The position numbers were made by a program, and so were the translations under genes. From Escherichia coli (GTDB lineage Bacteria > Pseudomonadota > Gammaproteobacteria > Enterobacterales > Enterobacteriaceae), in assembly GCF_003991155.1 (NCBI RefSeq), contig NZ_CP031295.1: a stretch of 64,000 bases of DNA. One strand, given 5' to 3'. Shown piece after piece: positions 31,827-36,129 of the stretch. The notes beneath the pieces were generated by a model, which saw only the letters and a program-made list of their open reading frames with translations, was not told where the DNA came from and made no database searches. Every line of letters begins with the position of its first letter. Within the stretch, counting starts at the first letter, position 1.

Positions 31827-32180
31827 ATGAAAGTAATTAGCATGAAATTTATTTTTATTTTAACGATTATTGCTCTTGCTGCTGTTTTTTTCTGGTCTGA
31901 AGATAAAGGTCCGGCATGCTATCAGGTCAGCGATGAACAGGCCAGAACGTTTGTAAAAAATGATTACCTGCAAAGAATGAAACGCTGGGACAACGATGTA
32001 CAACTTCTTGGTACAGAAATCCCGAAAATTACATGGGAAAAGATTGAGAGAAGTTTAACAGATGTTGAAGATGAAAAAACACTTCTTGTCCCATTTAAAG
32101 CTGAAGGTCCGGAGGGTAAGAGAATGTATTATGGCATGTACCATTGTGAAGAGGGATATGTTGAATATGCGAATGACTAA
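31827..32180 (+). CDS. cmi: colicin M immunity protein
   Basis: 117 aa MKVISMKFIFILTIIALAAVFFWSEDKGPACYQVSDEQ...; convergent with cma. Confidence 0.8.
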   Translation: MKVISMKFIFILTIIALAAVFFWSEDKGPACYQVSDEQARTFVKNDYLQRMKRWDNDVQLLGTEIPKITWEKIERSLTDVEDEKTLLVPFKAEGPEGKRMYYGMYHCEEGYVEYAND

Positions 32181-32229
32181 TACACTGTTATAAAGGCTGC
32201 ATAAAAAGGCCGGAATCCCGGCCCTTATA

Positions 32230-33045
32230 TTATCGCTTACCACTTTCTTTAATGTGAATTTCACCAGGAAGCAGTATCTGGTACTCTTTACCAGAAAACA
32301 TCGCCCCGAGCCTTGTGAGCGACTCTCCGATGACGCCACGGTGAGTGCTGGCGTTAAAATCGTATTTATCATCATATGAACGAACAACGCCATTGTAAGT
32401 CCAGGAGCCATTGGCAGAGATAGTTAAAGTACCTTCTGTTTTCAGTGTGATATTACCAAGATATGCACCGGTAATAACATTATAATCACCAGTGGCATGT
32501 GTGAACTTTGTAGAAACAGGGAATGTACCTACTACACCAGATTTTATAATGTCTTTTATCTGATTAATTTTCATAGGGGAAATTTTAAGACCAATGTTGG
32601 CGATATTAACGCTCCTTTCAGCGCCATTACCCCATAAATAGTGAGCAAGCGCCACAATTGGTGTAGTGACATTACCGCTCATTTGTTTCATATTCATTGA
32701 GCGATAGTCATATTGACTTGGCGCTGGTTTTGAGAAGTGGTAAGCGTCATAAACGCTTATTCCAGGGTGAAGAACCAGATTTCGGTCGGCGTTACAGAAG
32801 TAACCAATATTTGTCGATATGATCTGCAATGTGAGAGGGTTGCTAGCCCCATGTTTTTTGATGTAATCCTCAAGTTGAGTTAAAGCCTGAAGACACATGT
32901 TTGGACTCTGGAAAAAACTATAAACAACCTGGACTAAAAGAGGTCCAGCACCAGGAACATGCGGTGCTGAAAGAGAAAATGCACCATTGCCATAACTTGG
33001 TAAGTTAGTTGATGGTGATGGTGCATGAACAGTTAAGGTTTCCAT
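32230..33045 (-). CDS. cma: colicin M (lipid II phosphatase bacteriocin)
   Basis: 271 aa beginning METLTVHAPSPSTNLPSYGNGAFS with TonB box ETLTV; matches recalled colicin M. Confidence 0.85.
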   Translation of the reverse strand: METLTVHAPSPSTNLPSYGNGAFSLSAPHVPGAGPLLVQVVYSFFQSPNMCLQALTQLEDYIKKHGASNPLTLQIISTNIGYFCNADRNLVLHPGISVYDAYHFSKPAPSQYDYRSMNMKQMSGNVTTPIVALAHYLWGNGAERSVNIANIGLKISPMKINQIKDIIKSGVVGTFPVSTKFTHATGDYNVITGAYLGNITLKTEGTLTISANGSWTYNGVVRSYDDKYDFNASTHRGVIGESLTRLGAMFSGKEYQILLPGEIHIKESGKR

Positions 33046-33288
33046 ACATAACTCCTTATAAGTTAATAAGATAATAGAGTTCGCGGCTGGCTAACGCTTA
33101 CACCGGCGAACGAACCCCATGAGAGAGGCTCCCCATAACATTGTTTGCCGGATATGCCGTTAAAAATGGTAGGGAAGCACCTGAACTACCATATATAAGA
33201 TATATATCTGTACACTCCATTAAATACTGGAAATATATTGAGAACTCTGATATATAATCTATATATAAAAATACAAAAAGGTATATAT

Positions 33289-33816
33289 ATGACCAGCAAT
33301 AAAGATAAGAACAAGAAAGCAAACGAAATATTATATGCATTTTCCATAATCGGTATTATTCCATTAATGGCTATATTAATACTTCGGATAAATAATCCAT
33401 ATTCTCAAGTGCTGTACTACTTATATAATAAGGTTGCATTTCTCCCTTCTATTACATCATTGCATGATCCCGTCATGACAGCACTTATGTCAAACTACAA
33501 CAAGACAGCACCAGTTATGGGTATTCTCGTTTTTCTTTGCACATATAAGACAAGAGAAATCATAAAGCCAGTAACAAGAAAACTTGTTGTGCAATCCTGT
33601 TTCTGGGGGGCCGTTTTTTATGCCATTCTGATTTATATCACACTGTTCTATAATCTGGAACTAACAACAGCAGGTGGTTTTTTTAAATTATTATCTCATA
33701 ATGTCATCACTCTTTTTATTTTATACTGCTCCATTTACTTTACTGTTTTAACCATGACATATGCGATTTTACTGATGCCATTGCTTGTCATTAAATATTT
33801 TAAAGGGAGGCAGTAA
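33289..33816 (+). CDS. cbi: colicin B immunity protein
   Basis: 175 aa MTSNKDKNKKANEILYAFSIIGIIPLMAILILRIN...; multi-TM immunity protein of pore-forming colicin. Confidence 0.75.
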   Translation: MTSNKDKNKKANEILYAFSIIGIIPLMAILILRINNPYSQVLYYLYNKVAFLPSITSLHDPVMTALMSNYNKTAPVMGILVFLCTYKTREIIKPVTRKLVVQSCFWGAVFYAILIYITLFYNLELTTAGGFFKLLSHNVITLFILYCSIYFTVLTMTYAILLMPLLVIKYFKGRQ

Positions 33817-33833
33817 CACTGCCTTCCTTTTAA

Positions 33834-33990
33834 TTATTTTATGATCTTGTGATTCAACTCATCAACAAATTTATCATCGATAAATGCACCAATAGCACCT
33901 GCAATAACTACGCCAACAAAACCAACAACTGTGGCCGGAAGACCAAAGGCTATAAGGGCCGAGCCTAATGTCAAAGAAAACAAACTAAGA
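33834..33990 (-). pseudogene. cba: probable colicin B (cba) 3' remnant, frameshifted
   Basis: Minus-strand C-terminal peptide ...GAIGAFIDDKFVDELNHKIIK, hydrophobic-hairpin-like, convergent with cbi; no intact long ORF; assignment from gene order. Confidence 0.35.
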
Positions 33991-34173
33991 GCTACAGCAG
34001 CTGGTTACGAACTTAATGGCCAGACTATTTATGTATTGCTCCTGTGGCACACACGAGAAAACAGGTAGATTGTGTGTGGGGACAACTTAACATAGCCTGC
34101 AGATATTAATTCTGGAACATTATTATCAGGCCAGATATTTTGCATTCCATTAAATAATCTTGTAGGAGATAAA

Positions 34174-34455
34174 ATGAATTACGATGAAATAACGAAAATT
34201 ACCGCTGAACGTATTAGCGACTACATGACTGAAGCAGTTAATACAGACTCTATAGCCGTTGCGGAAATGTTTCATAACGCTGCATGGGGAGTGCGAACAT
34301 TGTGGTTTGAACTCGTCACAAAAATAGATATAGATATACATAAAAAGAACAGGTATGCGAGTTATGATCTTAGAAGGAAAATCGAAATGCAGCATGAAGA
34401 GTTTCAGAAAATGACAGAGCGTGAGCAAGTACCTTTATTGAAATCGCCAGAATGA
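34174..34455 (+). CDS. hypothetical protein (93 aa)
   Basis: ORF with GGAG RBS-like sequence; no family recognised. Confidence 0.35.
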
Positions 34456-34523
34456 TGTTCAGCGACTTCGCCCAGGTATTTTCTTTCGCCCCTTTTATGC
34501 CCTGCCGGACATTGTATAAATGT

Positions 34524-34680
34524 AGGGCGGGCCGCTTGGAATTCGGAAAATAAACCACGTTAAGACTATTTTTTAGTCAAATGACTTTCAGGAATCGCCA
34601 GAATGGCGGGACAACAGCGGTTTTGGTGTCCGAAATCGTACAATTCTGAACATCTACGCAAGGGAATGTACGGAAGTAAG
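34524..34680. repeat. Tn3-family-IR-like miniature element (TIME-like), inverted partner of 3480-3612
   Basis: GGGCGGGCCGCTTGGAATTCGGAAAATAAACCACGTTAAG resembles 38-bp Tn21-subgroup IR; subterminal homology to first copy. Confidence 0.4.
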
Positions 34681-34854
34681 CCAAATGGTTATCGGACGGT
34701 AGGAGCATTTCGTACATCCTTTACGTTCAGTGAGTTAGCTGGCTTGGATGTAACCACTCGTTCAACTCAATTCTCTTGACGTGGGGAAATCCGTTTTCCA
34801 AGCGGACCCCTTATAGGGGGTGAGGGCCCCCTCCCCTTCACTCTTGACTATGTG

Positions 34855-34873
34855 AACGATAATCATTATCGTT
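34855..34873. promoter_or_regulatory. Fur box in colicin V promoter region
   Basis: AACGATAATCATTATCGTT, near-perfect palindromic Fur consensus upstream of cvi. Confidence 0.7.
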
Positions 34874-34918
34874 AGTGTTTGTATGGTAATGGGATAGAAA
34901 GTAATGGGATAAAAAGTA

Positions 34919-35155
34919 ATGGATAGAAAAAGAACAAAATTAGAGTTGTTATTTGCATTTATAATAAATGCCACCGCAATATATATTGCATTAGCTATAT
35001 ATGATTGTGTTTTTAGAGGAAAGGACTTTTTATCCATGCATACATTTTGCTTCTCTATATTAATGTCTGCAATATGTTACTTTGTTGGTGATAATTATTA
35101 TTCAATATCCGATAAGATAAAAAGGAGATCATATGAGAACTCTGACTCTAAATGA
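34919..35155 (+). CDS. cvi: colicin V immunity protein
   Basis: 78 aa MDRKRTKLELLFAFIINATAIYIALAIYDCVF... Confidence 0.85.
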   Translation: MDRKRTKLELLFAFIINATAIYIALAIYDCVFRGKDFLSMHTFCFSILMSAICYFVGDNYYSISDKIKRRSYENSDSK

Positions 35156-35331
35156 ATTAGATTCTGTTTCTGGTGGTGCTTCAGGGCGTGATATTGCGAT
35201 GGCTATAGGAACACTATCCGGACAATTTGTTGCAGGAGGAATTGGAGCAGCTGCTGGGGGTGTGGCTGGAGGTGCAATATATGACTATGCATCCACTCAC
35301 AAACCTAATCCTGCAATGTCTCCATCCGGTT
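35133..35331 (+). pseudogene. cvaC: colicin V (microcin V) precursor cvaC, 3'-truncated by IS1
   Basis: MRTLTLNELDSVSGGASGRDIAMAIGTLSGQFVAGGIGAAAGGVAGGAIYDYASTHKPNPAMSPSG then IS1 terminus at 35332. Confidence 0.85.
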
Positions 35332-35346
35332 GGTAATGACTCCAAC

Positions 35347-35850
35347 TTATTGATAGTGTTTTATGTTCAGATAATGCCCGATGACTTTGTCATGCAGCTC
35401 CACCGATTTTGAAAACGACAGCGACTTCCGTCCCAGCCGTGCCAGGTGCTGCCTCAGATTCAGGTTATGCCGCTCAATTCGCTGCGTATATCGCTTGCTG
35501 ATTACGTGCAGCTTTCCCTTCAGGCGGGATTCATACAGCGGCCAGCCATCCGTCATCCATATCACCACGTCAAAGGGTGACAGCAGGCTCATAAGACGCC
35601 CCAGCGTCGCCATAGTGCGTTCACCGAATACGTGCGCAACAACCGTCTTCCGGAGCCTGTCATACGCGTAAAACAGCCAGCGCTGGCGCGATTTAGCCCC
35701 GACGTATCCCCACTGTTCGTCCATTTCCGCGCAGACGATGACGTCACTGCCCGGCTGTATGCGCGAGGTTACCGACTGCGGCCTGAGTTTTTTAAATGGC
35801 GGAAAATCGTGTTGAGGCCAACGCCCATAATGCGGGCGGTTGCCCGGCAT
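35347..35850 (-). CDS. insB: IS1 InsB (expressed as InsAB' by frameshift)
   Basis: 167-aa InsB frame. Confidence 0.9.
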
Positions 35851-36044
35851 CCAACGCCATTCATGGCCATATCAATGATTTTCTGGTGCGTACCGGGTTG
35901 AGAAGCGGTGTAAGTGAACTGCAGTTGCCATGTTTTACGGCAATGAGAGCAGAGATAGCGCTGATGTCCGGCGGTGCTTTTGCCGTTACGCACCACTCCG
36001 TCAGTAGCTGAACAGGAGGGACAGCTGATAGAAACAGAAGCCAC
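35769..36044 (-). CDS. insA: IS1 InsA
   Basis: 91-aa InsA. Confidence 0.9.
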
Positions 36045-36129
36045 TGGAGCACCTCAAAAACACCATCATACACTAAATCAGTAAGTTGGCAGCATCACCA
36101 GAAGGTCTTATCCTCTTTCATCTGATGAG

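Follow-up and report, generated by a model that had tools for sequence, protein, structure and literature searches.

Plasmid-borne genes for colicins B, M and V are known from two classical loci and from hybrids between them. The classical ColBM locus, represented here by CP122669.1 (reference locus L002), encodes a 511-amino-acid colicin B (ColB, gene cba) with a double LexA box, and transcription of its colicin M (ColM) gene, cma, has been placed at the SOS promoter upstream of cba (PMC8469651, PMC2994835). The classical colicin V (ColV) operon, represented by p1ColV5155 (L005), encodes a 103-amino-acid precursor, CvaC, and the CvaA/CvaB exporter, and a Fur site at the promoter of the immunity gene cvi has already been published (PMC7772137). 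As relayed by the papers that cite it (PMC6795089, PMC7772137), the class of truncated-cba ColBM/MccV hybrids described by Christenson and Gordon (2009) retains cbi in full but cba only as a short 3' remnant, alongside intact cma and cmi and an adjacent MccV remnant. The truncated cba beside what is left of the MccV operon has been explained by recombination of BM with MccV plasmids (PMC6795089). Here we describe a locus of this kind in Escherichia coli contig NZ_CP031295.1. A stretch of 64,000 nucleotides, referred to below as the window, was analysed, and the locus lies at positions 31827 to 36099.

As read from its sequence, this segment is a mosaic bacteriocin cluster. The ColM toxin gene and the immunity genes for colicins M, B and V (cmi, cbi and cvi) are kept, and the toxin genes of ColB and ColV are truncated. 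The original prediction, made from the letters alone, had drawn the same map, and every gene was found where it had been placed. All four features relayed for the hybrid class are present. Relative to that class, as the citing papers describe it, the cut by the insertion sequence IS1 at codon 66 of cvaC and the deletion into mig-14 would be later, lineage-specific decay. The carrier is an IncFIB/IncFII virulence-resistance plasmid. The decayed ColBM–ColV arrangement is already known and widespread on E. coli IncF virulence and resistance plasmids, and the locus holds no new biology.

Both halves of the cluster resemble their classical counterparts closely. Over cbi and the 3' end of cba, the window is 97.5% identical to the classical ColBM locus, with the genes oriented alike, but the complete ColB and the double LexA box of that locus have both been lost. 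Homology to classical ColV plasmids runs from 34754 to 35331 at 98.4% identity and covers cvi and the 5' end of cvaC. Here too the orientations agree and the Fur-box promoter is shared, whereas the full-length CvaC and the CvaA/CvaB exporter are missing. The four complete proteins of the cluster, Cma, Cmi, Cbi and Cvi, are each identical to proteins annotated in two related plasmids, L001 and pUTME-8-2 (NZ_CP157117.1, L004). Since Cmi, Cbi and Cvi are still encoded at full length, the cell should keep its immunity to all three colicins, M, B and V. Each of the three genes would be expressed from a transcription unit of its own, cvi behind its native Fur-repressed promoter. An Rfam scan of positions 31600 to 37500 at E ≤ 1 found no RNA family.

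The colicin B remnant and its junction

The ColB immunity gene cbi occupies 33289 to 33816 on the plus strand; its start at 33289 corrects the one given earlier. The encoded protein has 175 amino acids, matches the Pfam family Colicin_im (PF03857) over positions 1–138 of 138 (1.8e-63), and is identical to WP_000203272.1 in L001 and pUTME-8-2. It is thus predicted to be a full-length integral membrane immunity protein, and the expectation that cbi would be intact holds.

Next to it, on the minus strand, lies what is left of cba (33834–34003). Alignment to the crystallised protein (PDB 1RH1) identifies it as residues 457–511 followed by the stop codon, that is, the last 55 codons, within which a short open reading frame resembling the ColB C-terminus was listed at 33834–33983. 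The 5' part of the gene, about 1.37 kb comprising codons 1–456, is missing together with the promoter and the double SOS box. Of a 511-amino-acid ColB with a receptor/translocation domain and a complete pore-forming domain, only residues 457–511 were found. Such a promoterless fragment, covering no more than the final 55 residues of the pore-forming domain, would not be expected to yield any ColB.

The homology to intact cba ends abruptly. In the blastn alignment to L002 it stops at 34003, and at the base level the crossover falls at 34000–34003, without shared homology between the joined sequences. From 34004 onwards, the sequence matches an IncI1 plasmid locus (L003) at 98.7% identity, over the yacB 3' end and the 93-amino-acid open reading frame downstream of it. 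The last 65 bp of yacB, a gene for a RelE/ParE-family toxin, are joined directly to the cba remnant (34004–34068, plus strand; L003 positions 2501–2565). They are followed by a yacC-like hypothetical open reading frame of 93 amino acids (34174–34455, plus strand), which is collinear with the one downstream of yacB in L003, matches no Pfam family, and appears to be a passenger between the ColB and ColV remnants. A megablast search of 33817–34600 against PLSDB divides the region at the same place. The part from 33817 to 34003 matches plasmids with an annotated full-length cba, and the part from 34004 to 34456 matches another segment, found very widely, whose annotation reads 'RelE/ParE family toxin | hypothetical protein'.

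These alignments bear on the original description of the remnant as a frameshifted 3' end of cba. The identification as cba stands, by alignment to both 1RH1 and L002, but the frameshift does not, because the DNA beyond 34003 is the unrelated yacB'/yacC sequence. To the eye the gene may look continuous, and a weak tblastn alignment, with 88.7% identity across 62 residues, does extend as far as ColB residue 450. Against this, the nucleotide alignment to intact cba stops at 34003, the next base begins the yacB-yacC match, none of the three upstream reading frames holds ColB-like sequence, and a tblastn search of the window returned no other part of ColB. We therefore give a frameshifted gene almost no weight, and take the remnant to be, on the present alignments, a clean deletion or recombination junction between two truncated genes.

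The yacC-like open reading frame is separated from the start of ColV homology by a mosaic spacer of about 300 bp (34457–34753). Parts of this spacer recur, at 88–95% identity and without annotation, in many plasmids of the IncF and IncI groups and of Klebsiella. A GC-rich stretch at 34780–34840 has no Rfam match and corresponds to no known RNA.

The colicin V remnant and the IS1 element

The ColV immunity gene is complete and lies behind a recognisable promoter. A promoter-like site on the plus strand at 34844–34872 (TTGACT-17-TATCGT) is overlapped by a Fur box at 34852–34870 that matches 16 of 19 consensus positions; the original prediction had put this box at 34855. With up to three mismatches allowed, the window has three matches to the Fur consensus, at two sites, where chance would give 0.02. 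The second site, matched on both strands, is that of the aerobactin iucA promoter (49158–49176 at the iucA start, 17 of 19 positions). The cvi gene itself (34919–35155, plus strand) encodes 78 amino acids. Its product differs from Cvi of p1ColV5155 at one residue (77/78, A47I) and is identical to the allele of pUTME-8-2, a plasmid with a complete cvaC-cvaB-cvaA operon, so that cvi was rightly called intact.

The toxin gene fares differently. The truncated cvaC (cvaC') extends from 35133 to 35336 on the plus strand. Codons 1–66 (35133–35330) are 100% identical to the 103-amino-acid reference and encode the 15-residue leader and 51 of the 88 mature residues. The T at 35331 is also native, and IS1 then supplies a tryptophan and a stop codon, so that the listed open reading frame has 67 codons and runs into the element. 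The cut by IS1 had been foreseen, but after codon 65 rather than 66. The Pfam family MccV is matched over positions 1–68 of 104 only, and a 103-amino-acid precursor with a double-glycine leader and a full mature peptide is lacking.

The export genes are gone as well, as had been claimed. In tblastn searches of the 64 kb, CvaA had no match, and the sole match to CvaB was a weak, generic ABC-ATPase similarity (28% identity) in sitB. No dedicated exporter composed of the CvaB ABC transporter/peptidase and the HlyD-family protein CvaA was found in the window or on the whole of the closest complete relative, pCREC-544_1 (NZ_CP024827.1). With 37 residues missing from the C-terminus of the peptide, and without a CvaAB exporter, the cell would neither make nor export ColV.

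The truncated gene does keep its Fur-regulated promoter, its ribosome-binding context, a complete double-glycine leader and the 51 N-terminal residues of mature ColV. One could therefore imagine that cvaC' is active, either as a leftover piece of toxin that maintains selection for cvi in the manner of an addiction system, or as a competitor of incoming ColV. This would require that a heterologous exporter, for example a chromosomal one of the MchEF type, process the peptide, or that it act on the membrane from inside the cell. The conservation of cvaC' in 138 plasmids is explained equally well by shared descent, and we regard activity as highly improbable. Two PLSDB plasmids, H96 and H97 (NZ_CP080127.1, NZ_MW317021.1), match only as far as 35203 and thus have a different, earlier truncation point, indicating that cvaC was cut independently more than once in the lineage.

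The element that interrupts cvaC is a complete IS1 of exactly 768 bp (35332–36099), IS1B-like and annotated as IS1B in relatives, with its transposase genes on the minus strand. Its terminal inverted repeats are complete and begin GGTAATGACTCC and GGTGATGCTGCC, and both insA (35769–36044) and insB (35347–35850) are present as open reading frames. The flanking sequences, CATCCGGTT and AGAAGGTCT, differ, and the 8–9-bp target-site duplication expected of a simple insertion is absent. On the right, IS1 abuts a 5'-truncated mig-14 (36100–36771, plus strand) that has lost its first 77 codons and begins at codon 78. This fragment matches reference locus L006, where the full gene spans 3770–4672, from position 4001; it matches the Pfam Mig-14 model from position 51, and is a pseudogene in RefSeq. 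A search of the window for inverted or translocated copies found none of the missing pieces: the 3' end of cvaC, cvaB, cvaA, the 5' end of cba, ompT, hlyF or the 5' end of mig-14. The lack of a target-site duplication, together with a truncated mig-14 as the right flank, points to loss of cvaB and cvaA by IS1-mediated deletion or recombination rather than by simple insertion.

A plain insertion of IS1, or an assembly artefact, might still have left the remainder of cvaC and cvaB-cvaA intact beyond the element or elsewhere on the plasmid, with ColV export kept. The window holds four copies of IS1, repeats are classic places for mis-joins, and the visible part of the replicon is 64 kb. Neither version accounts for the missing target-site duplication or for a right flank that starts at mig-14 codon 78. 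The identical left junction recurs in 138 complete plasmids that were assembled independently, as well as in 125 complete genomes, and the closed pCREC-544_1 has both junctions and no cvaA, cvaB or cvaC 3' end anywhere. A retained ColV export system is accordingly very unlikely, and deletion or recombination at IS1 is preferred.

The four copies of IS1 lie at 3658–4133, 35332–36099, 41370–42137 and 57620–58387. One of them is partial and none has a target-site duplication; when all their flanks across the window were compared, no pair formed a split duplication. Between the copies at 35332 and 41370, which have a direct orientation, lie the truncated mig-14, an integrase gene and the RepFIB replicon, and the whole unit resembles a composite transposon.

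Colicin M and the loss of SOS control

Of the three toxin genes, only cma is complete. Its immunity gene, cmi (31827–32180, plus strand), encodes a 117-amino-acid protein that has the sequence of WP_000864812.1, the protein annotated in both L001 and pUTME-8-2, and that agrees with the sequence of the solved Cmi structure (PDB 4AEQ) at 97 of 98 positions over residues 20–117, in keeping with a membrane-anchored periplasmic protein. The toxin gene itself (32230–33045, minus strand) encodes 271 amino acids, 269 of them identical to crystallised ColM (PDB 2XMX). The two substitutions, A105S and I238V, are conservative. The motifs that define the protein are a TonB box, ETLTV, and the catalytic DxYD(x5)HR at D226–R236 (PMC8469651), and both are unchanged, as E2TLTV6 and D226KYDFNASTHR236. 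The Pfam family Colicin_M (PF14859) covers Cma end to end (3.8e-155, 515 bits). The claim that cma and cmi are intact is thus borne out by the comparison with both structures and by the full-length family match.

The regulation of cma is a different matter. In the intact reference L002, TTGACA...CTGTACATAAAACCAGTGGTTATATGTACAG stands upstream of the cba start codon and represents two overlapping LexA boxes of the typical kind. In the window, this SOS-regulated promoter and its LexA boxes, which lay upstream of cba, have been deleted. A search for CTGT-N8-ACAG with at most one mismatch found no LexA box in the vicinity of either cma or what remains of cba. The single LexA-like match of the region lies inside the coding sequence of cbi; it was considered as a replacement regulatory site and rejected, as it is also present in L002. 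The intergenic region between cma and cbi (33046–33288), which would hold any weak, SOS-independent promoter of cma, has no LexA-box match.

Since the deletion in cba took the SOS promoter and the double LexA box, ColM production is probably low-level and not SOS-inducible. The gene would normally be driven by read-through from cba, and without that promoter a low, constitutive output, unresponsive to DNA damage, is to be expected. Published observations are compatible with this. A cma-gfp fusion showed uniform low-level expression, and no promoter or SOS motif was seen directly upstream of cma (PMC2994835). Secretion of ColM by strains without an SOS box is reported in a paper citing Christenson and Gordon (2009) (PMC7772137). 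The original prediction had the host producing only ColM. The intact open reading frame supports it, but the claim passed over the SOS promoter and double LexA box that L002 has and the window lacks. Our own reading is that cma expression is probably both weak and independent of DNA damage, and that production of ColM is plausible.

A more severe consequence would be that cma is effectively silent, with no ecologically meaningful ColM, so that the cluster would amount to a cassette for immunity to three colicins, M, B and V, in which the toxin gene is a hitch-hiker. The deleted SOS promoter and LexA boxes would fit such silence, as would the failure to find a consensus promoter upstream of cma, both in our promoter scan and in the earlier study (PMC2994835), and reviews put the transcription of cma under the cba promoter (PMC8469651). 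Yet the gene is intact with two conservative changes, every catalytic and TonB-box residue is kept, the protein is identical in L001 and pUTME-8-2, and the arrangement itself is widespread. The low, uniform signal of the cma-gfp fusion (PMC2994835) and the secretion without an SOS box, as reported second-hand (PMC7772137, citing Christenson and Gordon 2009), also speak for some expression. Silence is therefore the less probable outcome, although it deserves more weight than the other alternatives raised here, and weak, constitutive expression of cma is preferred. The transposase genes of IS1 share the strand of cma and lie about 2.3 kb upstream of it; read-through from them into cma is speculation.

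Origin and spread of the arrangement

The two junctions record two separate rearrangements. In the first, illegitimate recombination linked a ColBM module (cmi, cma, cbi and cba) with a ColV plasmid at a point shortly upstream of cvi. A small backbone piece, yacB'-yacC, lies at the join, and codons 1–456 of cba, the cba promoter and its double LexA box were lost. In the second, IS1 inserted into cvaC after codon 66. An adjacent deletion mediated by IS1, or recombination between copies of IS1, later eliminated the 3' end of cvaC with cvaB and cvaA, and in this lineage ompT-hlyF and the first 77 codons of mig-14 as well.

The order of these events is indicated by pUTME-8-2, which represents an intermediate. 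It carries the same cmi-cma-cbi-cba'-yacC-cvi block with an identical cba junction and is 99.9% identical to the window over 30000–35331. It differs in having a full-length cvaC followed by cvaB and cvaA, with no IS1, and should still make and export ColV. The deletion in cba thus preceded the IS1 event.

Both junctions are common, although not in combination with the deletion into mig-14. In PLSDB, the cba/yacC junction is present in 292 plasmids, the segment from the yacC side to cvi in 286, and the identical cvaC::IS1 junction in 138. The block cba'-cvi-cvaC'::IS1 occurs in 125 of 5,426 complete RefSeq genomes of E. coli. Most relatives have only the left junction of IS1 in common with the window, and in them ompT-hlyF-mig-14 is retained on the far side of the element. 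Only one plasmid, pCREC-544_1, also has the right junction into mig-14. It is 100% identical to the window over 33700–36300, with both IS1 junctions, and about 99.9% identical over roughly 50 kb; it differs in the antibiotic-resistance region (window positions 1–14.5 kb). A shared left junction with variable right flanks is consistent with a single insertion in an ancestor, after which IS1 drove different rearrangements. In pCREC-544_1, the corresponding pseudogenes carry the RefSeq labels 'colicin-B, missing N-terminus' and 'cvaC, missing C-terminus', and Mig-14 is annotated as partial. The original prediction named an intact cba or cvaABC elsewhere as the finding that would overturn it. Neither was present in the window, and the complete 122.9-kb pCREC-544_1 held no additional match to ColB, CvaA, CvaB or CvaC.

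Taken as a whole, an account with two rearrangements, retained immunity and weak, non-SOS production of ColM is very probably correct. Several points weigh against it. The search covered 64 kb of one replicon, and a second cba, cvaAB or another microcin exporter could sit elsewhere in the cell. Immunity and ColM production are deduced from intact open reading frames and from second-hand literature. Cbi differs at 4 of 175 residues (171/175 identical) from the Cbi that stands beside an intact cba in L002. In addition, a sigma-70 promoter scan gave 11 matches against 13.9 expected in shuffled sequences, and is powerless to place a promoter for cma.

The locus is a clean textbook example of a lost toxin with its immunity kept. 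The cost of the toxin is saved, and the protection against neighbours that still produce it stays. The loss of the cba promoter would also silently rewire the downstream toxin gene, cma, from SOS-induced to low constitutive expression. Definitions of ColV plasmids rest on cva and cvi markers. Where typing goes by gene presence, and cbi, cvi or the 5' half of cvaC is scored as 'colicin B' or 'ColV plasmid', strains of this kind will be misclassified as producers.

Neighbouring features of the window

Immediately to the left of the colicin block is a run of genes of the anti-phage defence type (18526–29236). It contains genes for a HEC-04-like AAA ATPase (18526–19992, minus strand), a PDC-S06 protein (21450–23588, plus strand, 949 bits), a PDC-S35/TIR-like protein (24969–25868, plus strand) and the phage T7 exclusion protein PifA (25918–28143, minus strand, 963 bits), followed by pifC (28145–29236, minus strand). 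Two paralogous tyrosine recombinase genes, at 30858–31649 and 37454–38194 (49% identity, E=1e-69), flank the colicin and IS1 block in the same orientation. The first 15,000 positions of the window form a resistance and replication region with the IncFII repA (319–1191), tet(A) (8056–9330) and aph(3')-Ia (13617–14432).

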